From: Chloroflexota bacterium
GTDB taxonomy: Bacteria > Chloroflexota > Dehalococcoidia > Lucifugimonadales > JACPCL1
Reading direction: 5' to 3'
Length of the DNA stretch: 43,544 nt
NCBI GenBank assembly: GCA_016202485.1
Contig: JACQOP010000138.1
Span: 1-43,544 of the forward strand
Position numbers and translations under genes: made by a program. Below, one piece after another: positions 4,436 to 38,316 of this stretch; the stretch's first letter is position 1; each line of letters begins with the position of its first letter. The notes beneath the pieces are model-generated. The model searched no databases and was not told the DNA's origin. It saw nothing but the letters and a program-made list of their open reading frames with translations.

Positions 4436-5695
4436 ATGACAGTGCAAAACCATCGCCGCAGGGTTGTGGTGACAGGGATGGGGGCGGTGACGCCCCTGGG
4501 CACATCGGTGGAGGCTTTCTGGCAGGGGCTGGTGGCCGGGCGGTCGGGCATTGGCCCGATGACGCTGTGCGACCCATCGGCGTACCCGTGCCGCATCTCG
4601 GGGGAGGTGTCCAACTGGGACCCGGGGCAGTTCATCAACATCCGTGAGGCGCGGCGCATGGCCCGCTTCACCCAGCTTGCGGTGGCGGCGGCCCAGATGG
4701 CGGTAGCGGACGCCCGCATCAACCTGGAAGGGCTGGACCGCACACGAGCCGGCGTTATTCTGGGCAACGGCAACGGCGGTTTTCCAACGATAGACGAGAC
4801 CATGCGGATCATTATTGAGAAGGGAGGTATGCGTATCTCGCCCTTCTTCTTCCCTATGATCCTACCGAACATGGCTGCGGCGACGGTAAGCCGGGTGCTG
4901 GGGGCGCAGGGGGTGTTGTCCACGGTGACCACGGCGTGCGCGGCCTCCACCCAGTCCATTGGTGATGCGGTGGAGGTGATACGGCGGGGCGCTGCGGACG
5001 TGGTCTTTGCCGGCGGGACCGAGGCGGGGATCAGCGAGCTGGGGCTGGCCGGGTTCTGCGTGATGCGGGCATTGAGCACCCAGAACGAGGACCCCCAGGC
5101 GGCCAGCCGGCCCTTTGACGCCAGGCGTGACGGCTTTATCCCGGGTGAAGGCGCGGCCATCCTGGTGCTGGAGAGCCTGGAGCATGCCCTGGCCCGGGAT
5201 GCAAAGGTCCTGGCGGAGGTGGCGGGCTACGGGGTGACCTCGGATGCGTACCACCCGGTGCAGCCGGAGGAGAACGGGGCGGGCGCCGCGCGGGCGATCC
5301 TGCTTGCCCTGGCGGATGCAGGCGTGACGCCGGCGGAGGTGGACTACATCAACGCCCACGGGACGTCCACGCCCCTGAACGATGCGGCGGAGACGAGGGC
5401 CATCAAGCTGGCCTTTGGGGAGGCGGCGTACCGTATCCCCATCAGTTCCACCAAGTCCATGATCGGTCATGCCCTGGGTGGCGCCGGTGGGATGGAGGCG
5501 GTGGCGTGCGTCAAGACCATCGTGGACGGGATGATGCACCCCACCATCAACTACCAGTTCCCAGACCCGGAGTGTGACCTGGATTATGTGCCCAACCAGG
5601 CGCGGAAGAAGGACGTGCGGGTGGCGCTGTCCAACAGCTTTGGATTTGGGGGGCAGAACGCATGCCTGGTGTTCAGGAAGTTTGAGGGGTTCTAG
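4436..5695 (+). CDS. fabF: Beta-ketoacyl-ACP synthase II
   Basis: N-terminus RRVVVTGMGAVTPLG, active-site context TACAAST, two His motifs (HGTSTP, GHALGGAG) and C-terminal SFGFGGQNA. The start was moved to the internal ATG that gives the canonical N-terminus. Confidence 0.9.
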   Translation: MTVQNHRRRVVVTGMGAVTPLGTSVEAFWQGLVAGRSGIGPMTLCDPSAYPCRISGEVSNWDPGQFINIREARRMARFTQLAVAAAQMAVADARINLEGLDRTRAGVILGNGNGGFPTIDETMRIIIEKGGMRISPFFFPMILPNMAAATVSRVLGAQGVLSTVTTACAASTQSIGDAVEVIRRGAADVVFAGGTEAGISELGLAGFCVMRALSTQNEDPQAASRPFDARRDGFIPGEGAAILVLESLEHALARDAKVLAEVAGYGVTSDAYHPVQPEENGAGAARAILLALADAGVTPAEVDYINAHGTSTPLNDAAETRAIKLAFGEAAYRIPISSTKSMIGHALGGAGGMEAVACVKTIVDGMMHPTINYQFPDPECDLDYVPNQARKKDVRVALSNSFGFGGQNACLVFRKFEGF

Positions 5696-5710
5696 AGGAC
5701 ACCCCCAGCA

Positions 5711-5741
5711 GCCCCCAGCCAGGGTACGGCCCTCTGCGCAC
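5711..5741. repeat. 31-bp repeat, copy B (downstream of fabF)
   Basis: gcccccagccagggtacggccctctgcgcac. See copy A at 4322..4352. Confidence 0.5.
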
Positions 5742-5889
5742 TGCACCGCTATGTTCGTAGCAATGACAAACGCGAAGCGCCTTGGAGAGGGATCAGGCTC
5801 TATGTTCGTAGCTACAGCGCCCGACACCCTCGCCCAACCGAGGGTGTCGGGAATAATAGATAACCTACGGCAGTAGTCCCACTGCCATC

Positions 5890-5917
5890 AAAAAAAGAAC
5901 CCACCTCTATGGGTGGG
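5890..5917 (-). terminator. Rho-independent terminator of the SWIM-protein gene
   Basis: The minus strand reads cccacc-catag(a)-ggtggg followed by ttcttttttt, immediately after the TAA stop at 5920. Confidence 0.65.
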
Positions 5918-5919
5918 CG

Positions 5920-6174
5920 TTAAGTCCGGGGTTCTACGGCAGGCGCCGTAAGCTGCACTCCGTTGAGGACTCGCTCCATTGTCATCGTATGACTGCATAC
6001 TTTGCCAGAGAGGAAGTGGTCGCAGGTGCAGCGCCAGGCCCCACCTTCGTAAGAGACTTGGTGGCTGTCGTTCTCGCCACGGATGGTGGCGGAGAACTGG
6101 CCGACGCTGATGCGGTCCCGTTCCTGAGCATACCGCTGGGCCTTCTCAACCATGCCAATGAGGCTTGAGTACAT
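5920..6174 (-). CDS. Small SWIM zinc-finger protein
   Basis: CxCxnCxH signature in WRCTCDHFLSGKVCSHTM. Length 84 aa. Confidence 0.6.
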   Translation of the reverse strand: MYSSLIGMVEKAQRYAQERDRISVGQFSATIRGENDSHQVSYEGGAWRCTCDHFLSGKVCSHTMTMERVLNGVQLTAPAVEPRT

Positions 6175-29977: not shown

Positions 29978-30310
29978 CTACCGGGTCGCGGTTGGTTCCT
30001 TGGGCCAGGGCTTTTGCTCGGGGTCAAGGACGAGGTGATATTTCATTTGCTCCTGTTTGCCGCTCTTGAAGGTAACGGTGATACCTATGGTGAACTCCCC
30101 CCACCCAGAGGTCTCCAAGGCAAACTTGTCTTCGCTGCTGGTACGCACCTGGTACGGCTCTGGAAAGGACGAATGCAAGAAATACTCCACTTGCTGGATC
30201 TCTTGCAGCCGTACTGTCGGCTCGTTGACAAAGACGCGCCAGCGGTAATATTGGCGGCCGCTGACGGTGACACCTAAATCCTTGGAGTAGTTGTTGAATT
30301 GTATGGCCAT
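29978..30310 (-). CDS. Prokaryotic YEATS (pYEATS)-like domain protein
   Basis: YYRWRVFVNEP...LQEIQQVEYFLHSSFPEPYQVR...KFALETSGWGEFTIGITVTFKSG fits the remembered pYEATS pattern (W.W.v, VeY.LHptFp, F.l...gWG.F.i). SD aggtgagg precedes ATG 30310. Confidence 0.65.
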   Translation of the reverse strand: MAIQFNNYSKDLGVTVSGRQYYRWRVFVNEPTVRLQEIQQVEYFLHSSFPEPYQVRTSSEDKFALETSGWGEFTIGITVTFKSGKQEQMKYHLVLDPEQKPWPKEPTATR

Positions 30311-30322
30311 GAGTCGCCTCAC

Positions 30323-30811
30323 CTAATCTGGGACATGAATGGCATCCCTTATCGTAGCCAGTGGAGTGAACCAGCGGACCTGCCACCGGTCGCCGTTCTT
30401 TTCCTTGAGCCTTAACTGGATATAGTCCGTAGGGCTGACGCTAGGCAGTAGGATACACTGCCATCCGCCCGGCCCCAGCGTAGGGAGCAGCTTGCCACGC
30501 TCCTTAGTCTGATTACTGTTCCCTTCCTTCAGTTCGTAGTTGCATTCCTCTGAGTCCAGGTCTACGGTTCCGTTTTCTCTGTCAGGAAAGCGCAAAGTGA
30601 CTGAGACCTGGCCTTTGGGGCGAATGGAGTCCCGGAAGGCAAAGATAACCGCGCCCAGAATCTCCACAATGCCTGCACCAATGAGCCATCGGAAGTAGTC
30701 AGGATCAGCCCTTGGGAAGAGTCCAAGTCCTACCAGGATTGCCGCAAGAAAGGTGCCCAGCAGGATGATTAGGAATGCGGCGAGTATTGCGTACCGCTCT
30801 CTCAGAGTCAC
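30323..30811 (-). CDS. 2-TM membrane protein with a soluble C-terminal domain of about 100 aa
   Basis: GTG start with SD gaggtga 6 nt upstream. The stop lies 12 nt before the pYEATS-like ATG. The gene looks more AT-rich by eye than its flanks. Confidence 0.65.
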   Translation of the reverse strand: MTLRERYAILAAFLIILLGTFLAAILVGLGLFPRADPDYFRWLIGAGIVEILGAVIFAFRDSIRPKGQVSVTLRFPDRENGTVDLDSEECNYELKEGNSNQTKERGKLLPTLGPGGWQCILLPSVSPTDYIQLRLKEKNGDRWQVRWFTPLATIRDAIHVPD

Positions 30812-30878: not shown

Positions 30879-32327
30879 CTACTCCGTCAGGCGCTGGCCG
30901 TAGTCTATGTAGGCGGTGCTGCCCACCTGGGACAGGGCGATCTCCTGGCGGTAGACACCGCCGTGAAAGGGGCGTTCGGCGCTATGGACTTCCCGCTCCC
31001 AGTGCACCTCTTCCGGCGCCGGCCCGTCCTTGAGGGCCTCCAGCAAGGGACGGCCGTCCAGGGGGACGCCAGGGTCAAGGCCCAGGAGATGTAGGATGGT
31101 GGGGGTGAGGTCCACGTTGCCGCTTGGAACTCTTGTGACCAGGCCCCGTTTAAAGTGTGGGCCGCGGGCAAAGAGGACGTTGTTCATTTCGTGCTTGCTC
31201 ATTCCGCCGTGCTGGCCACGGCCTGGGGCCGCGCCGGTGGCGTAGGAGATGCCCAGGAAGCCGTTCTCGTTGGGGCGGGAGTCCCAGCGGAAAGACATGG
31301 CCAGGTCCGGGGCGCGTGTGCCCTCGTTGCCGACGACATGAGCGGGCAGGGTCCCTGGGATGCCGGCGGCAGCGTCGGAGGCGGTGACTGCGCCGCACCA
31401 GGGCTGTGCCATCAGCCAGACGGTGAGCTTGTCAGTTACGCCAGCATCTTTATTGTGGGCATAGAAGAGGACGGAGCCGCCGTTGTGGGCGGCGTAGACG
31501 CCGCCGGGCCGGTCGCCCTCGGGGAACCCCGCTTCCTTGATGACTTCGCCTACGTTGACCACGCCCCCAATAGTGGCGTAGCCGTGGTCGGAAATGACCA
31601 GGATATCGGTGTCTTCGGCGCGGCCCATGCGCTCCAGCCAGCCCAGGATTTCTCCGAACTGCTGGTCTGCGTCATGGATGGCGCCATTGGAGACCGCATG
31701 GCCGACGCCGTGCCGGTGGTGGGAGTGGTCCGGCTCGGAGAACCAGATGAGGCTGACGGCGGGATCCCGCTCTGGCTGAACGTATTCGGTCAAGACCCGT
31801 TTGCCATAGACCAGGCGCTCAGTATTGGGGACGCTATCCTCGGGCCAGGGGCCGAAGCGTCCGATAATCTGGTCGTAGAGGCTGTAGGGTAGGGTGAAGT
31901 CTGGGTGGATGGTTGCCCCGCCGGAACGGTGGGCGTTGGGGTTGTGCATATAGGCGTTGCCGGAGGTGCCGGTACCCACTGCGATGTACTCCTGCCCGTA
32001 GCGATGGAGGATATCGGCGAGGGTAGGGGCTAGAAGCACCTCCCCCAGCTTGGCAGCCACCTCTTTGAGGGTTGGCTCAAGGACCGAGAAGGGGCGGTAG
32101 GGGTCAAAGTCCCGCATGACGACGGAGTTGGCGGCAATGCCGTGGTTGCCCGGGTAGCGGCCGGTCACCATGCTGGTCCCGTTAATACGGGTGACGCTGG
32201 GGAAGACGCAGTGGTGAGCGGCGAAGGTGACGCCCTCCTGTGCCAGCTTGTAGAGGTTGGGCATGACCTGTGGCGTCACGTTGGCAGGCTGGAGGCCGTC
32301 AAATACCGCAATAAATACACGTGTCAT
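30879..32327 (-). CDS. Alkaline-phosphatase-superfamily nucleotide pyrophosphatase/phosphodiesterase (NPP-type)
   Basis: AVFDGLQP, nucleophile block FPSVTRINGTSMVTGRYPGNHGI and VISDHGY. Confidence 0.85.
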   Translation of the reverse strand: MTRVFIAVFDGLQPANVTPQVMPNLYKLAQEGVTFAAHHCVFPSVTRINGTSMVTGRYPGNHGIAANSVVMRDFDPYRPFSVLEPTLKEVAAKLGEVLLAPTLADILHRYGQEYIAVGTGTSGNAYMHNPNAHRSGGATIHPDFTLPYSLYDQIIGRFGPWPEDSVPNTERLVYGKRVLTEYVQPERDPAVSLIWFSEPDHSHHRHGVGHAVSNGAIHDADQQFGEILGWLERMGRAEDTDILVISDHGYATIGGVVNVGEVIKEAGFPEGDRPGGVYAAHNGGSVLFYAHNKDAGVTDKLTVWLMAQPWCGAVTASDAAAGIPGTLPAHVVGNEGTRAPDLAMSFRWDSRPNENGFLGISYATGAAPGRGQHGGMSKHEMNNVLFARGPHFKRGLVTRVPSGNVDLTPTILHLLGLDPGVPLDGRPLLEALKDGPAPEEVHWEREVHSAERPFHGGVYRQEIALSQVGSTAYIDYGQRLTE

Positions 32328-32467
32328 GGGGCACCTCCGCGCAAGATGGCGTGATTCTATCACACTTGCAGGGGGTCTACCCGTGAACGCCGAGCCGAAT
32401 GTAGGAGCAGCTACTCATAGGATAACCCATGCAGGTGGCTGCCCCTGAATACGCTTGGCCCCCTAAG

Positions 32468-32962
32468 CTATACCTTTGTGTTTTTGCCCAGGTCCCACCC
32501 GCCGGCCACAGCCGAGCCCAAAGTCCCATCGGAGCTTTGTGGGGAGTACTTCCACTCAATTTTGCTGAAGTTGAAGCTGATTTCCTCCAGAGGTAACGTC
32601 TCTCCTCCCTTGGCGTTTCCTCCTGGCCTGACGGAGGAGATGATGACGTCGGTCATCTTGTACTCCAGGTATTGCTGCTGGGCCCCATCGGTCTTCTGGA
32701 ACTGTATGGTGACCTCTGGGATGTGTTCCCCGCTGGCGCAGGCCAGCATCAGGAGGGGAGTGGACTTGTCCAGGGATTTCACCACCGTGAAGTTGCTGAA
32801 ACTAGCCCGCTCGGCAGTCCCCGCCGCCGAGGATGAGACGGCGCTGGAAGGCTGGGTAACCCCAAAGCTGTAGGACAGGATATTTATCCAGTCTTTGTGC
32901 TTGAGTTGGTCCGTGCTTTCGCCGGGAATGGAGCCTATCTTGATAAATGCATCAAAGGCCAT
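32468..32962 (-). CDS. hcp: Hcp (T6SS tube protein TssD family)
   Basis: MAFDAFIKIGSIPGES..., DKSTPLLMLACASGEHIP and ISFNFSKIEWKY align by eye along the whole length with P. aeruginosa Hcp1 (MAVDMFIKIGDVKGES, DKSTPNLMMACSSGKHYP). SD aggagg. Confidence 0.9.
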   Translation of the reverse strand: MAFDAFIKIGSIPGESTDQLKHKDWINILSYSFGVTQPSSAVSSSAAGTAERASFSNFTVVKSLDKSTPLLMLACASGEHIPEVTIQFQKTDGAQQQYLEYKMTDVIISSVRPGGNAKGGETLPLEEISFNFSKIEWKYSPQSSDGTLGSAVAGGWDLGKNTKV

Positions 32963-33542
32963 TTTTAACCTCCTGTGTTGGAACGTCTGCTGGTGAGAAT
33001 ACCAGGTCAAAGGTGAACTCCGCTGTGCCGTCCCCGCCTAACTCCTGGGGACGTTGCTTAGCCAGATAGGTGCCCTTAGCGCCGGCGTAGCGGCCAGTCC
33101 CGGCGACCACCGTGTAGAGGTCATGCCCGGTTCTGGATGCCCTGCTTGTGCCCATGCCGAGAAGGGCGCCGTCCAGCAGGTTAAAGGTGTGGACCTCTAT
33201 CCTGGTGGCGGCAAAGGGGGTGGGGCCAAAGGGGGAGCCTATGGACAGGCAGTTGGAATAAAACTCGCCCAGCTTTAGGTCTTTTGACTCGTTGAGTAGT
33301 TCACCATACATCACCATCTGGTCTCCCATGACTGGCAACTCTCCCTGCTTGTGGTCCTGGGAGTAGAGGTGCCAGTGACGGCCATTCAGCCTCAGAGGGG
33401 TCTTAGACAGCAACGAGGGGGGGCCGATAACAGCGGCGCCGACACCGGAGCTCTTAAAGGCTACGGCGGCCCCTGCGGCTGCCAGGAGAATAGCCGCCCG
33501 TTTCAAGAAACTGCGCCTGGGGGCTTTTGCTGCATCTCTCAT
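32952..33542 (-). CDS. Tat-exported protein, dirigent/allene-oxide-cyclase-barrel-like
   Basis: PRRSFLKRAAILLAAAGAAVA Tat signal and a VVAGTGRYAGAKGT motif. It overlaps the hcp start by 11 nt. Confidence 0.65.
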   Translation of the reverse strand: MRDAAKAPRRSFLKRAAILLAAAGAAVAFKSSGVGAAVIGPPSLLSKTPLRLNGRHWHLYSQDHKQGELPVMGDQMVMYGELLNESKDLKLGEFYSNCLSIGSPFGPTPFAATRIEVHTFNLLDGALLGMGTSRASRTGHDLYTVVAGTGRYAGAKGTYLAKQRPQELGGDGTAEFTFDLVFSPADVPTQEVKNGL

Positions 33543-35143
33543 TTGGCCGCTCCTTCCTTTTGCAACTGGTCATGCTGAGAGCCTTGCGCCGGCGCCAAAA
33601 AGCCCAGCCCCAGCAATTTTTTTACCGTATCTATGGCTGTAATGGCAAGGTCATTAGCGTTTGTTCCCGTACCTTGCGCCACCTGCTCCACGGCTTCTCC
33701 CAGAAGGCGACGCCCATCGCAGAAGGCCAACAGGTGCAAAGTGAAGCCGTCTATTCTGCCTTGGAAGCGGAGCCCACGTTCCAGTGCCAGTACCATATCC
33801 TGGGCGCCGTATGCCCCGTTGCGCCATTTTAGCACCTGCTCCAGACGGTGGTGCTCCACAAGGCGAAAGGACTGAGCCAGGATGGCACGGTCGTCCTGCA
33901 ATGCGACGAGGTAGTCCTGGGCCTGGAAAAGGGTGACGATATGCTCGCCAGCGGGGCCAATGGTCCCAGGTGGGAGCTGCTCGGCCCGAGTCCAGTGGGG
34001 TCCCTTGGAGCGGCGAAGGATGACGGCGCCCGAGGCTATGGCTTCAATTCCTAGTTTCTGATAGTAGCTGAGCCAGCGGTCCAGAGCGTTCTGATACGCG
34101 CTTAGGTCTCCGTGGTAGTGAGGCCTTGTCCAGTTAGCTGCATAGGTGAGGGGGTCCTCGGTCTTGTAGTGGAGCAGGAGAGCATTGCAGCCACTGCTTT
34201 CTATCCACCTGCGAACAGGGGCTGACCATTCTTCACCGCTCCGGCATGTCCAGTTACAGAGGATGTGGGCAAAGCCTCCTTCGGCCAGGAAGGCAGGCGA
34301 CTCCTTGACGACCTCTGCACTCACCGAATCACCGGGTAGGCCACCGTCACGGAAAATATAGCTGGTATCAGGGGAAATGACATAGGGGGGATTGCTGACG
34401 ATAAGGTCAAACTGGTTGCCAGCCACCGGTTGGAAGAAGCTGCCTTGGCGGCACTGGATGTTGTGTATGCCGTTTAACTGAGCATTGAAGGCGGTAAAGC
34501 CCAGGGCTTTCGCGTTAACGTCCGTGGCCACCACCTGGCCGGCTTGCCGCGCTGCTAATAACGCCTGGACTCCGCACCCTGTGCCCATGTCCAGGACTGC
34601 ACCTACCGGTGTTCTCACCGTAAGATGCGCCAGGGTGACCGAGGTGGCGTTCACGCCAATGACGTAATCGGAGGGTAATTCACTGGGATCTGGGTAGTGG
34701 GGGTCTGAGACTATGATAAAGCCCTGGTAGGGGAAGAGCCGCACCAAAGGGCGGACCCCCTTCGGGGTACGCTGCGCCAAGCCCATACCCAGCAACTGCT
34801 GCAGGGTCATGGGCCTCAGGCTTTTCGCTACTTCATCCTCCTCTACCGTGACCCCCAGCAGGAACAACTTGACAAGCGTGCTAAGGGGGAGGTCTTCTGG
34901 CAGCCGGCGGATTGCCACAGCGATGTCTACGGGCTGGAAGTACAGGTCATCCTGGCCCCCCAGGACTGCCTTTACTCCCGCTTCCGAGTAGTTGGCTGCT
35001 TCCAGCGCCGTACGGAACTCTGCTATGGGCTGGGTGGCCACTCCTGAGAAGAAATTCCCAGGGTTGGACTCCCTGCCAACTGCCTTCTCTTTTCCAGCCT
35101 TGCTGCCGGCTTTACCGCTAGTTACGTTCATCTTACATCCCAA
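33539..35143 (-). CDS. PrmC/HemK-like SAM-dependent methyltransferase with large N- and C-terminal extensions
   Basis: LDMGTGCGV motif I and the DLIVSNPPYV catalytic motif. ATGA overlap with the downstream gene. ATG 35131 is an alternative start. Confidence 0.8.
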   Translation of the reverse strand: MGCKMNVTSGKAGSKAGKEKAVGRESNPGNFFSGVATQPIAEFRTALEAANYSEAGVKAVLGGQDDLYFQPVDIAVAIRRLPEDLPLSTLVKLFLLGVTVEEDEVAKSLRPMTLQQLLGMGLAQRTPKGVRPLVRLFPYQGFIIVSDPHYPDPSELPSDYVIGVNATSVTLAHLTVRTPVGAVLDMGTGCGVQALLAARQAGQVVATDVNAKALGFTAFNAQLNGIHNIQCRQGSFFQPVAGNQFDLIVSNPPYVISPDTSYIFRDGGLPGDSVSAEVVKESPAFLAEGGFAHILCNWTCRSGEEWSAPVRRWIESSGCNALLLHYKTEDPLTYAANWTRPHYHGDLSAYQNALDRWLSYYQKLGIEAIASGAVILRRSKGPHWTRAEQLPPGTIGPAGEHIVTLFQAQDYLVALQDDRAILAQSFRLVEHHRLEQVLKWRNGAYGAQDMVLALERGLRFQGRIDGFTLHLLAFCDGRRLLGEAVEQVAQGTGTNANDLAITAIDTVKKLLGLGFLAPAQGSQHDQLQKEGAAK

Positions 35144-35162
35144 GGGCGTTGCTGCAAGAACC

Positions 35163-35969
35163 TTAGTCAGAGCTGCAATTGCCTTCGTTGAGCCATGCCT
35201 TCAATGCTGTGGGATGGACCCGCAGGGCTCTGTAGGTGCTGGTGGTTACGTGTCCCAGAGTCTCACTACCCTTGTGCAACTCCGGGGGTGATCCGGCGAA
35301 GTCGTTATAGGCGCTGTAGGGGCCAGAGGAGTTGCCATAGGAAGCCAGTTCGTTCCAGATGCTGGTCATGCTGGATGGGCTGCCGTACTGTCCAGAGTCG
35401 TTTATAATGGAGTCGGGGCTGAACCCGTTGCCTGAGACCTTGCCCAGGAGCTGCCCGTCACCTGCTACAAGCCAGGCACCGCATATCTGGGGAGTTAGAA
35501 GGATAGCATACTCAGCGATGAGTGTGGCTGTAGGGGTTGCTGAGGGTAAAAAGGTGGGTGTCGGTGTAGCGGTGGGTAAGGGGGTGGGAGTGGACACAGG
35601 GGTAGACGTAGGACTGGAAACCACAATAGGGCTGGGGCTTGCCGTTGGTGTTGGCGACGGTACGATAGTCGCATCGGGCGTAGGACTAGCGACGGAAAGT
35701 GGAGTCGCCGTTGGAGTGGGCGAGGGAGCAGCAGTAGGGGTTAGGGTTGCCGTGGGTGTGGGCGATGGCGTAGGGGTGAAGGCAGACTCACGTGTCAGTG
35801 TGGGCTCCGGCTCAGGAGATAGGGTGGGGCCAATGGTTAACGTAGGGGTTGGCGACGGCTCTGCTGTGGATGTGGGGGTAGCGGTAGGCAACGCCTGCAC
35901 ACAGGCCACCAGAAATAAAGGGCCTAGGAGTAAGGGAAGGACAGCGAACCGGTCTGGTCTGAATCGCAT
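35163..35969 (-). CDS. Lipoprotein with a long Pro/Thr-rich linker and a C-terminal domain of unknown function
   Basis: Lipobox LFLVAC, about 120 aa of PT/PS repeats, then a globular tail with YGSPSSMTSIWN / YGNSSGPYSAYN motifs. Confidence 0.7.
   Translation of the reverse strand: MRFRPDRFAVLPLLLGPLFLVACVQALPTATPTSTAEPSPTPTLTIGPTLSPEPEPTLTRESAFTPTPSPTPTATLTPTAAPSPTPTATPLSVASPTPDATIVPSPTPTASPSPIVVSSPTSTPVSTPTPLPTATPTPTFLPSATPTATLIAEYAILLTPQICGAWLVAGDGQLLGKVSGNGFSPDSIINDSGQYGSPSSMTSIWNELASYGNSSGPYSAYNDFAGSPPELHKGSETLGHVTTSTYRALRVHPTALKAWLNEGNCSSD
35523..35888 (-). repeat. Low-complexity Pro/Thr-coding repeat region
   Basis: It encodes PTATPTSTAEPSPTPT...PTPTFLPSATPTAT. It also creates a spurious Gly/Val ORF on the plus strand. 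Confidence 0.85.
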
Positions 35970-36035
35970 GGGCCACATAATAGGCTTTCCGTCCCGTCCA
36001 AAGCAATGAGGTGGAGTACGTAGGCAGAGAGGGTT

Positions 36036-36755
36036 TTACCATCGCTTGCGGCGGCGTCCCATGAGCTTGACCAGCAGGCGCAGCGGGGCCGGCAAGCCCC
36101 GGGGGATGACTGGTGCTAGGATGGCCACGACTGCCGTGTCGCTAACGGCTTTGGCGAAACGAGCGGGGTCTCCGCCAGTGGCAAAGCCGTAGTGAGTGGG
36201 AATGACCGTCTCGGCCCTGACCATGGCAGCAGCTTGGGCGGCCTCGGCCTCATCCATGACAAAGACACCCCCGATGGGCAGCATGGCTACGTCCACGGGC
36301 CCCGCCTGGGCCAGCTCCGGCACGGCGTCGGTATCGCCTGCGTGGTAGATGGTGAGGCCGCCAAGCTGAAAGCGGAAGCCGGTGTTGAACTGCTGTGCCC
36401 TGGGGTGCAAGCCGTTGTAGCCGGGGACGCTGGTGATGGAGAGGCCGGCGGCGGCGGTGGACTGGCCCTCCCACAGGGCCGTGGCCTGCAAGCCCTTGGC
36501 GCTCAAAGCTGCGGCGGCGGCAGGGCTGGCGACAATGGGCGCGCCTTCCTTGCGGCAGGCATGGATGGCCGTGGTGTCCAGGTGGTCCTGGTGGGGGTGG
36601 GTGACCAGCACCAGATCAGCCTTGTCCTGCCCGACGTAGGCTGGCGTGATGCGCAGGGGGTCAATCCAGACGACGGTGTTGCCAGCCTTGATTTTGAAGC
36701 AGGACTGGATGTAGCGGGTGAATTCAACGCCGGAGAGGGTAACTGTAGACGTCAT
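36036..36755 (-). CDS. MBL-fold metal-dependent hydrolase (UPF0173-like)
   Basis: DLVLVTHPHQDHLD motif. Confidence 0.85.
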   Translation of the reverse strand: MTSTVTLSGVEFTRYIQSCFKIKAGNTVVWIDPLRITPAYVGQDKADLVLVTHPHQDHLDTTAIHACRKEGAPIVASPAAAAALSAKGLQATALWEGQSTAAAGLSITSVPGYNGLHPRAQQFNTGFRFQLGGLTIYHAGDTDAVPELAQAGPVDVAMLPIGGVFVMDEAEAAQAAAMVRAETVIPTHYGFATGGDPARFAKAVSDTAVVAILAPVIPRGLPAPLRLLVKLMGRRRKRW

Positions 36756-36894: not shown

Positions 36895-38316
36895 ATGGAC
36901 GATGCGGCCCTGGCCTTTGCGCCCGCATGGCGGCTTCGTGACCTGGTGGCCCAGAAGCAGGTGTCGCCTGTGGAACTGGCGGAGCTGTTCCTGGAGCGCA
37001 TCGCCAGGCTGGACCCGCGCCTGAATGCCTACCTGACGGTGGCGGCGGAGCAGACGCTGGAGTCGGCGCGCCAGGCGGAGCGGATGGTCCTGGCCGGCGT
37101 GGTCCTGGAGCCGCTGCATGGCGTGCCTATCGCCATCAAAGACCTGACCCCCACCCGAGGGTTGCGGACCACGCGGGGGTCGCTCCTGTTCAAGGACAAC
37201 GTGCCTCAGGTAGATGCCATTGTGGTGGCTCGTATACGGCAGGCGGGGACGGTAATCCTGGGCAAGACCAATACACCAGAGTTTGGGTGTTCGGCAACCA
37301 CGGAGAACAGGCTGGGTGACGACTGCCGCAATCCGTGGGACCCCAAACGGACCTCGGGCGGGTCCAGCGGGGGTGCAGCAGCCGGCCTTGCGTCGGGGAT
37401 GCACCCCCTGGCCCACGGGACCGACGCCGGCGGTTCTATCCGTGTGCCCTCTGGCATGTGTGGTGTCTTTGGCATCAAACCCACCCAGGGAAGGGTTGCC
37501 CAATCTTACGTAGGCCCTGGGGGCTGGGGCGCCCTGGCCCAGAGCGGCCCCATCACCCGCACCGTGCGGGACGCTGCACTACTCTTGCAAGTTATGGCAG
37601 GGCCGCACCCTGATGACCCCCTGGCTATTCCGGAGGCGGCACCGGATTTTGTGGCCGGCCTGGAGGGGGGAGTGAAGGACATGAGCTTGGGGCTGAGCCT
37701 GGATATGGGAGGCGTCCCCGTTGACCGGGAGGTGCGGGCCTGCGTCCAGAAGGCGGCGAAGGCCTTTGAGGAGATGGGGGCTGTGGTGGAAGAGGTACAG
37801 GTGGAGTTGGACCACGAGGCAGTCAGGCAGGCGTTCATGGCTATCTTCCTGGCCGACTATGCGGCATCCCTGGAGGAACTCTACCTCCGAGATAAGGAGC
37901 TGTTCTCTCCGCTGATGTCCCGCTTTATGGAGACCGCTCTTCACATGCCAGCCTCGGAACTGGCTAAGGCCCTGCGCCAGAGGGAGTGGCACCGCTGGCG
38001 CATGGATGCGCTTGTGAGTCGCTATGATTTGTTCCTGACGCCGACGCTGGCGGTGACGGCCTTTCCTGTGGGGCAGCGCCCGGCGGTCATTGATGGGCAG
38101 GCAATAGACCCGGACTGGAGCGTTACTCCATTTACCTTCCTGTTTAATATGAGCGGGCACCCGGCGGCCAGCGTCCCCTGCGGGTTCTCCTCGGAGGGGC
38201 TGCCCATTGGATTGCAGATAGTTGGGCAAAAGGGTGACGAGGCGAGGGTGCTGCGGGCCTCGGCTGCCTTTGAGGAGGCCAGGCCCTGGGTGGACAAGCG
38301 GCCAAAGGCAAGCTGA
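36895..38316 (+). CDS. Amidase-signature family amidase (GatA-like)
   Basis: GGSSGGAAAGLASG signature and IAIKDL lysine motif. Confidence 0.9.
   Translation: MDDAALAFAPAWRLRDLVAQKQVSPVELAELFLERIARLDPRLNAYLTVAAEQTLESARQAERMVLAGVVLEPLHGVPIAIKDLTPTRGLRTTRGSLLFKDNVPQVDAIVVARIRQAGTVILGKTNTPEFGCSATTENRLGDDCRNPWDPKRTSGGSSGGAAAGLASGMHPLAHGTDAGGSIRVPSGMCGVFGIKPTQGRVAQSYVGPGGWGALAQSGPITRTVRDAALLLQVMAGPHPDDPLAIPEAAPDFVAGLEGGVKDMSLGLSLDMGGVPVDREVRACVQKAAKAFEEMGAVVEEVQVELDHEAVRQAFMAIFLADYAASLEELYLRDKELFSPLMSRFMETALHMPASELAKALRQREWHRWRMDALVSRYDLFLTPTLAVTAFPVGQRPAVIDGQAIDPDWSVTPFTFLFNMSGHPAASVPCGFSSEGLPIGLQIVGQKGDEARVLRASAAFEEARPWVDKRPKAS

Follow-up and report, generated by a model that had tools for sequence, protein, structure and literature searches.

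A conserved module of Hcp, a DUF7059/DUF7782 methyltransferase and a predicted Tat-signal barrel protein in Chloroflexota and Actinomycetota

Hcp (TssD) is regarded as a component of the machine that double-membrane bacteria use for type VI secretion. A complete gene for this protein is located in a 43,544-nucleotide (nt) contig of a Chloroflexota bacterium (JACQOP010000138.1), the whole of which is called the window below. Four open reading frames (ORFs) are arranged there head to tail on the minus strand and encode, in this order, a lipobox protein, a methyltransferase, a 196-aa protein with a predicted twin-arginine translocation (Tat) signal followed by a β-barrel, and Hcp (Table 1). We have found that Hcp and the methyltransferase, with or without the barrel protein, constitute a module which exists in two phyla lacking an outer membrane, and that no other gene of a type VI secretion system (T6SS) lies beside it in the window.

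The genes of the trio are tightly packed. The stop codon of the methyltransferase gene overlaps the ATG of the barrel gene as ATGA, which is preceded by GGAAGGAG, and the barrel and hcp genes overlap by 11 nt, the hcp ATG being placed inside the barrel gene (sequence ATGGCCTTTGA). Both junctions had been described in a first-pass annotation made from the DNA alone and were read again in the sequence. From the 11-nt overlap and the GGAGG motif inside the barrel gene, hcp is apparently translationally coupled to the barrel gene. The longest ORF of the methyltransferase (534 aa) starts with TTG at 35143, but the start was taken to be the ATG at 35131, giving 530 aa, because an identical public protein of this length (P0139) begins there. 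A promoter and terminator scan of 32200..36200 was uninformative since the counts matched those expected from shuffled sequence.

Table 1 Features of the hcp locus and of two variant arrangements in related loci (positions refer to the window unless a locus number, L, is given)
Feature	Position	Strand	Basis or remark
Hcp/TssD, 164 aa from MAFDAF, without signal peptide	32468..32962	-	PF05638, TIGR03344 and PDB Hcp matches
GGAGG Shine-Dalgarno sequence of hcp, within the barrel gene close to its stop codon	32969..32973	-	Sequence read; 6 nt 5' of the hcp ATG
Predicted Tat-signal protein, 196 aa, with eight-stranded AOC/dirigent/PodA-type β-barrel	32952..33542	-	ORF; 18 homologues; AlphaFold2 model; Foldseek
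Predicted twin-arginine signal peptide, residues 1-36	33435..33542	-	PRRSFLK, Ala/Gly-rich h-region RAAILLAAAGAAVAF, VGA-A site
RRSFLK motif	33501..33518	-	Sequence
Barrel domain, residues 46-182	32997..33407	-	Alignment A1; DSSP of the model, eight strands
Methyltransferase with DUF7059, MTS (NPPY) and DUF7782 domains, predicted S-adenosylmethionine (SAM)-dependent N-methyltransferase	33539..35143	-	Pfam PF23186, PF05175, PF25004; AlphaFold2/Foldseek
DUF7059 N-terminal domain, residues 49-132	34748..34999	-	PF23186, E = 5e-12
NPPY catalytic motif, residues 251-254	34382..34393	-	Within NPPYV.SP, invariant in the 32-sequence alignment A2
DUF7782 C-terminal domain, residues 406-518	33590..33928	-	PF25004, E = 1.2e-8
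Lipobox (LVAC) protein, possible fourth operon gene, clade-specific	35163..35978	-	ORF; C-domain homologues
PF10119 + PKMT_2nd methyltransferase, divergent	L014 8475-9917; likewise L015, L017	-	Like rickettsial protein-lysine methyltransferases
Truncated vgrG + barrel gene	L027 8505-10372; L124 1962-3761		VgrG: Phage_GPD + Phage_base_V, no spike helix

The identity of Hcp is clear. The protein matches PF05638 over the entire profile (positions 1-129 of 129; E = 4.3e-42; 143.9 bits against a threshold of 23.5), exceeds the cut-off of TIGR03344 (TssD; 91.4 against 58.9 bits) and matches Hcp1 of P. aeruginosa (PDB 1y12) with E = 3.8e-30. The first-pass annotation was thus right to call it a full-length Hcp without a signal peptide, and a signal is missing from Hcp in all other loci compared as well. 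An identical protein was found elsewhere on a single 1.1 kb Logan contig only, and the Hcp located inside the canonical T6SS cluster of a Syntrophobacteraceae member (L037) is about 57-58% identical to that of the window. The motifs HKDWIE, SAER, GGETLPLEE and KIEW.YT of the window clade are common to the Hcps of T6SS clusters in which the methyltransferase is embedded (L037, L083, L116) and are not common to those of the other modules of single-membrane (monoderm) bacteria. These motifs hint that the module and a T6SS cluster may have exchanged hcp, by transfer or by replacement. A neighbour-joining tree which grouped the window clade with the T6SS-embedded Hcps and apart from other module Hcps was not built upon, as it had no outgroups and a midpoint root, and only the motifs are noted here. 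In several contigs assembled from long-read metagenomes (L013, L024 and L035, from Microflora Danica) the hcp or barrel genes are frameshifted; these may be assembly indels and not pseudogenes.

The barrel protein begins with MRDAAKAPRRSFLKRAAILLAAAGAAVAF and bears the sequence features of a Tat substrate, namely the motif, the h-region and an AxA-type cleavage site; its export is a prediction. The RRSFLK signal pointed out in the first-pass annotation is conserved in most homologues, in the form [ST]RRxhLK in Chloroflexota and in many Actinomycetota. In the AlphaFold2 model (mean confidence score, pLDDT, 78.8) the signal segment is helical with low pLDDT, and an eight-stranded antiparallel barrel follows, across which the pLDDT exceeds 90. 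The earlier guess of a dirigent- or AOC-like barrel holds at the level of the fold: Foldseek assigned a probability of 1.00 to the pyocyanin demethylase PodA, allene oxide cyclase (AOC), dirigent proteins and the Diels-Alderase AbyU (PodA 5k21, E = 6.6e-7; TM score up to 0.81 on the target), at a sequence identity of only 12-19%. The window protein had no match in Pfam, NCBIfam or PADLOC and did not reach the gathering score of PF18678 or PF03018, and its homologues gave sub-threshold Pfam matches to AOC_like and Dirigent (20-24 bits against a cut-off of 25.9). The family shares with AOC, dirigent proteins, AbyU and PodA the predicted eight-stranded barrel and a GGTGRYxG-type motif (GTGRYAGAKG in the window) but differs from them in carrying a Tat signal and in obligately adjoining Hcp or VgrG. 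The invariant residues in alignment A1 are E116, H118, R151, Y159, Q163 and GGDG (169-172), and the polar ones among them suggest a ligand-binding or active site. There are 18 relatives in a word-indexed collection at 90% identity, and a profile search found 727 clusters at 50% identity.

The methyltransferase contains the DUF7059, MTS (PF05175, E = 3.6e-15) and DUF7782 domains in this order, with 46.3, 56.5 and 35.7 bits against cut-offs of 27, 23 and 27, and this architecture is common to more than 1,140 relatives. Its AlphaFold2 model (pLDDT 89.3) is closest in Foldseek to GenN and AerE, followed by PrmC and protein-lysine methyltransferases. GenN, the gentamicin 3''-N-methyltransferase, is the top match in both sequence (E = 5e-15) and fold (TM 0.8 over the GenN chain), and AerE, a proteusin-modifying enzyme that N-methylates asparagine side chains in a peptide, gave TM scores of 0.54/0.75. 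The enzyme had previously been described as PrmC-like with an NPPY motif. The motif and the catalytic core stand, whereas the assignment to PrmC does not: the score against TIGR03534 (PrmC) is 66.3 bits with a cut-off of 199.1, only the core residues 180-260 are aligned, the PrmB equivalog gave 51 instead of 230 bits, and the fold is nearer to GenN and AerE. The class I SAM fold and the NPPY motif, which binds an amide or amine nitrogen, are shared with the release-factor glutamine N5-methyltransferases PrmC/HemK (a HemK-family model also matched) and with AerE/PoyE. The window enzyme lies far below the equivalog cut-offs of PrmC and PrmB and adds the DUF7059 and DUF7782 domains to this core. 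Moreover, neither a release-factor gene nor the precursor gene of a ribosomally synthesized and post-translationally modified peptide (RiPP) provides its context; no RiPP genes were seen around the loci viewed, and the genomic partner is Hcp. On the basis of the model the enzyme is predicted to N-methylate an amide or amine, and its substrate is plausibly a protein or a peptide. No paper mentioning DUF7059 or DUF7782 was found in the literature searched.

The linkage between the genes was analysed in 28 loci returned by a scan of species-representative genomes with the barrel family. The contigs were as long as a closed 3.1 Mb chromosome, the genes in related loci were extracted by tblastn anchoring, and up to 10 kb of flanking DNA was viewed on each side. 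The hosts belong to Thermomicrobiales, Dehalococcoidia, Anaerolineaceae, Chloroflexia, Candidatus Amarobacillus and Gaiellales/Gaiellaceae, and the carriers of the module include the closed Gaiellaceae chromosome OY970171.1, the contigs CAWJWW010000002.1 and CAVYEH010000001.1 and the Chloroflexi assembly GCA_016210295.1. The hcp gene is located immediately 3' of the barrel gene in 27 of the 28 loci, in both Chloroflexota and Actinomycetota, the spacing between intact genes being -11, -1, +2/+3, +10 to +16 or +37 to +50 nt. The position of the methyltransferase gene varies by clade: it is upstream, as in the window, downstream (Gaiellaceae) or divergent. The window order of methyltransferase, barrel protein and Hcp was also found in two paralogous copies in one Chloroflexi metagenome-assembled genome (MAG) and in groundwater contigs, and the nearest relatives of all three window proteins are from MAGs of Chloroflexi and Dehalococcoidia. 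This arrangement is far beyond chance since it recurs on dozens of unrelated contigs, and the order of the trio is shuffled while the adjacency is kept in at least two phyla, which indicates a functional linkage. That the trio acts as a unit had been proposed in the first-pass annotation with the three-gene linkage named in advance as the point to be checked, and the linkage proved to be conserved.

Two variants of the arrangement are informative. In the loci of Dehalococcoidia and Ca. Amarobacillus the DUF7059 enzyme is absent, and a divergent methyltransferase of the PF10119 + PKMT_2nd type stands in its place beside barrel-hcp. These versions of the module, unlike that of the window, thus contain a likeness to rickettsial PKMT1/PKMT2, which methylate lysines of outer-membrane proteins. 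The non-orthologous replacement by an enzyme of the protein-lysine type argues that protein methylation belongs to the function of the module. In one lineage of Actinomycetes (L027, L124), hcp is missing and a truncated vgrG precedes the barrel gene, whose product has a signal peptide of its own, and in L124 VgrG and the barrel were called as a single 599-aa fusion. The pair adjoins uvrA and a gene for LPG synthase, with no other T6SS genes in view. The presence of the barrel gene beside vgrG means that it behaves as carrier-linked cargo.

A second scan, in which metagenome contigs were searched with the methyltransferase alignment and neighbours were identified by tblastn, yielded 80 closest relatives with an identity of 40-48%. 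At least 54 of them have Hcp as a neighbour: the whole trio is present in 28, the barrel gene is cut off by the end of the contig in 4, Hcp occurs without the barrel gene in 15, and the remaining 7 belong to T6SS clusters. In the 15 loci with Hcp only, it is encoded within 70 nt, mostly in convergent orientation. The other 26 relatives have neither Hcp nor the barrel gene beside them, and in only 2 of these does the contig extend for more than 2.5 kb in both directions. Hcp and the DUF7059-MTS-DUF7782 methyltransferase are therefore the pair that is primarily conserved, the barrel protein being less constant. The idea of the trio as the core unit thus stands as far as the recurring adjacency is concerned but not in its membership, as the most constant partner of Hcp is the methyltransferase, which also occurs in genuine T6SS clusters. 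Weak "Hcp" matches within methyltransferase genes were removed, as they were due to a frameshifted query (L035). The literature searched contained no account of the module, of an Hcp-associated methyltransferase or of Hcp in Chloroflexota or Actinomycetota.

In the canonical Syntrophobacteraceae cluster L037, which extends from TssK through VgrG, the three-domain methyltransferase gene is placed after vgrG and a HEAT-repeat gene. In the T6SS loci L083, L085 and L116 the genes for TssA/B/C, Hcp and TssE/F/G are in view (that for VgrG in two of them), and the methyltransferase gene separates the operon of tssA from that of clpV-vgrG. In the methyltransferase tree, loci of the same context class group into coherent clades, the Syntrophobacteraceae enzyme being a lineage apart from the other T6SS-embedded clade, and the pairwise distances of methyltransferase and Hcp are correlated (r = 0.66, 52 loci). 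One relative without Hcp nearby, from a planctomycete (L040), has an eRF1-like protein of baeRF_family10 encoded at 4847-6019 on the minus strand, about 4 kb away. PrmC-type enzymes methylate the GGQ motifs of release factors.

A search with 14 T6SS proteins of the L037 cluster (tblastn) detected hcp alone in the 43.5 kb window, and the Pfam analysis of the neighbours revealed no T6SS core protein, in agreement with the first-pass annotation. In the 28 genome loci with their flanks, the only other core gene found was one vgrG fragment. The module of Actinomycetota lies in a housekeeping region, between pnp on one side and the genes of an M16 peptidase (pepM16) and dapB on the other, and this location indicates vertical inheritance in a core region and not a mobile island. 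No match was obtained when 2.9 million viral contigs were scanned with the barrel and methyltransferase alignments, so that a phage-borne module was rejected. Among six proteins compared with PADLOC, including Hcp, the barrel protein and their neighbours, the sole match was that of the methyltransferase core to mad2 (E = 2e-22). As this match covers the generic SAM-binding core only, a known anti-phage defence system was rejected as well.

On the whole, we lean towards the reading that the genes form a conserved chromosomal Hcp module of single-membrane bacteria which works without a T6SS, with Hcp and the barrel protein in a complex and the enzyme methylating Hcp or its partner. The coupled translation and the cargo-like adjacency are consistent with such a complex. 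Hcp and the barrel protein would be produced in a constant ratio and associate before export, in the cytoplasm, in a way that can be likened to Hcp rings holding small cargo encoded beside hcp in organisms with a T6SS. The barrel protein would leave the cytoplasm via Tat, either released from Hcp or carrying Hcp subunits along. The methyltransferase may N-methylate Hcp or an Hcp-bound partner and so control ring assembly or cargo binding, and members of the same family would be unrecognised accessory genes in some true T6SS clusters. The module would also be independent of any T6SS encoded elsewhere in the genome.

Several observations weigh against this reading. The absence of T6SS genes applies to the window and, in the related loci, to at most 10 kb on either side, and a T6SS or another contractile system may be encoded elsewhere in the genomes; one related lineage has the vgrG fragment, and L123 contains a stand-alone gene for a 162-aa CIS_tube protein (PF19266; 16622-17110, plus strand) between aspS and the RNase J gene. 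The Hcp hexamer, which is about 85-90 Å wide in established structures, reaches or exceeds the size that Tat usually passes, and a Gaiellaceae subclade has TRASLLK with RA in place of RR. The search for an acceptor residue in 65 methyltransferase-linked Hcps showed that every position conserved in at least 85% of them is generic to Hcp, with no Asn or Gln among these positions; Hcp is therefore a putative substrate only. The link to Hcp is not family-wide, as methyltransferase clades without Hcp nearby exist (L039, L040, L052), and the trees are simple neighbour-joining trees with midpoint roots.

Four other explanations were considered. The signal-less Hcp might be carried over the single membrane by the barrel protein, its rings or tubes then acting on the cell surface, just as signal-less subunits of hydrogenases and dimethyl sulfoxide (DMSO) reductases ride Tat with signal-bearing partners. 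The position of the barrel gene 5' of hcp with overlapping or nearly touching stop and start codons, the lack of a signal on Hcp in all loci, and the exported proteins encoded nearby (a lipoprotein in the window clade, a collagen-repeat protein in Gaiellaceae) fit such hitch-hiking, and Tat is known to export pre-assembled complexes. The likeness to HybOC and DmsAB, or to the chaperones TorD/DmsD, consists in the coupling of a signal-bearing with a signal-less protein and is an analogy only: the module has no redox cofactor proteins, and no known Tat chaperone is related to Hcp. We consider this export route unlikely, since 15 of the 80 methyltransferase loci have Hcp but no barrel gene, so that Hcp has a role in which no Tat partner takes part, since a hexamer of Hcp would be a very large load for Tat, and since one subclade has a degraded RR motif. 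It is less probable still that the genes are a spare part, that is, an isolated island of hcp and cargo genes which supplies a complete T6SS or some other contractile injection system elsewhere in the genome, and in which the neighbours of Hcp would be an effector or immunity protein loaded into it and an accessory enzyme. T6SS-positive genomes commonly contain orphan hcp/vgrG islands apart from the main clusters (PMC4793230). The module resembles these islands of Gram-negative bacteria in its full-length Hcp of the Hcp1 family, in the adjacent partner of about 17 kDa, and in the switch of the partner family to vgrG adjacency in another lineage (L027, L124), as T6SS cargo does; moreover, the Hcp of the window clade has motifs in common with the Hcps of T6SS clusters that contain the methyltransferase, at an identity of about 57%. 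However, the module is carried by Chloroflexota and Actinomycetota, on long contigs that include the closed 3.1 Mb chromosome, and a survey recorded no diderm-type secretion loci or T6SS in monoderm genomes (PMC4793230). No core gene other than hcp was found in 43.5 kb, and none but the vgrG fragment in the flanks of the 28 loci. The module is retained vertically in a housekeeping region, and its partner is encoded 5' of hcp, translationally coupled to it and provided with a Tat signal, which would be senseless on cargo for tube loading; a dedicated methyltransferase is included too. There is a realistic chance that the module, although akin to an orphan Hcp-cargo unit, is a distinct system that lacks a T6SS and is linked to Tat and to a methyltransferase.

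The tailoring of a small molecule would make the methyltransferase an enzyme that N-methylates a metabolite, as GenN does, and the barrel protein an extracytoplasmic cyclase, dirigent protein or demethylase acting on the same class of compounds, with Hcp as a carrier or merely co-located. GenN is indeed the top structural match (TM 0.8), the likeness extending to the N-terminal subdomain, and the barrel resembles enzymes of small molecules with its invariant Glu, His, Arg and Tyr. The window enzyme is about 200 residues longer than GenN, though, and has a C-terminal domain absent from it; AerE and PrmC, whose substrates are peptides or proteins, match the fold equally well. Neither an aminoglycoside cluster nor any other biosynthetic cluster is nearby, and the surroundings of the module contain no conserved biosynthetic genes such as those for polyketide synthases, nonribosomal peptide synthetases or glycosyltransferases. 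The enzyme keeps its tie to Hcp where the barrel is absent and also within T6SS clusters, and is replaced in Dehalococcoidia by a methyltransferase of the protein-lysine type, so that a metabolic role seems to us quite improbable. The least credible explanation is a conflict or defence island, in which the barrel would be an exported immunity-type protein, or Hcp a decoy of the phage tail tube, and the methyltransferase a modifying enzyme. Immunity proteins against envelope-acting T6SS toxins do bear export signals, and the methyltransferase domain matched mad2 of PADLOC with E = 2e-22. This match is confined, as mentioned above, to the generic SAM-binding core and none was obtained for Hcp or the barrel protein; the context is stable and housekeeping rather than a variable island, the module is absent from viral contigs, and no toxin partner was seen.

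If the preferred reading of a T6SS-independent Hcp module is correct, Hcp is given a second, machine-independent role that is stably inherited in two single-membrane phyla, and the Pfam families DUF7059 and DUF7782 obtain a concrete candidate function. N-methylation of Hcp or its cargo would then be predicted both in these bacteria and in the T6SS clusters that embed the same enzyme, and T6SS-derived proteins may be connected to the Tat pathway in a new way. A more far-reaching form of the reading would describe a T6SS-independent Hcp (in one lineage VgrG) system of monoderms, in which the ring partners a Tat-exported barrel enzyme at the envelope, and in which the methyltransferase would be the first known Hcp-modifying enzyme, a protein amide/amine N-methyltransferase that is also an overlooked accessory controlling the tube or cargo in a subset of canonical T6SSs. 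We regard this extended form as tentative and rather doubtful.

The lipobox gene may be a clade-specific fourth member of the operon. Its product consists of the LVAC lipobox, a Pro/Thr/Ser-rich linker of about 130 residues and a C-terminal domain of about 115 aa of no assigned family, without any match in Pfam, NCBIfam or PADLOC. The ORF ends 19-31 nt ahead of the methyltransferase start, and homologues of the C-terminal domain (56-66% identity) are encoded just 5' of the methyltransferase gene solely in the clade of the window (L003, L008/L010, L042). In Gaiellaceae, a secreted protein with collagen-type G-x-y repeats (PF01391) and an N-terminal signal or anchor is encoded just 5' of the barrel gene (L028, 9372-9950, plus strand; homologues in L021, L023, L024, L032 and L036). 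The CIS_tube gene of L123 is a second orphan tube-fold gene in an actinobacterial housekeeping stretch which also holds the Hcp module.

The phosphodiesterase gene 3' of hcp is not kept with the module in the related loci compared. Other genes of the window that were analysed with Pfam belong to ordinary metabolism (CcmF, isopropylmalate dehydrogenase, an amidase and a molybdopterin oxidoreductase). An amidase gene (PF01425) lies a few kb from the module in three otherwise unlike loci, namely the window (36895..38316, plus strand), L008 (3510-4865) and L019 (5627-6820), and its association with the module is possibly a weak one. The window also encodes a prokaryotic YEATS-domain protein of 114 aa (29978..30322, minus strand; PF20305, E = 1.8e-21). 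An ORF of 162 aa (30323..30811, minus strand), which matches no family and whose product is hydrophobic in an N-terminal segment, abuts the YEATS gene, which is located 3' of it, with zero gap.

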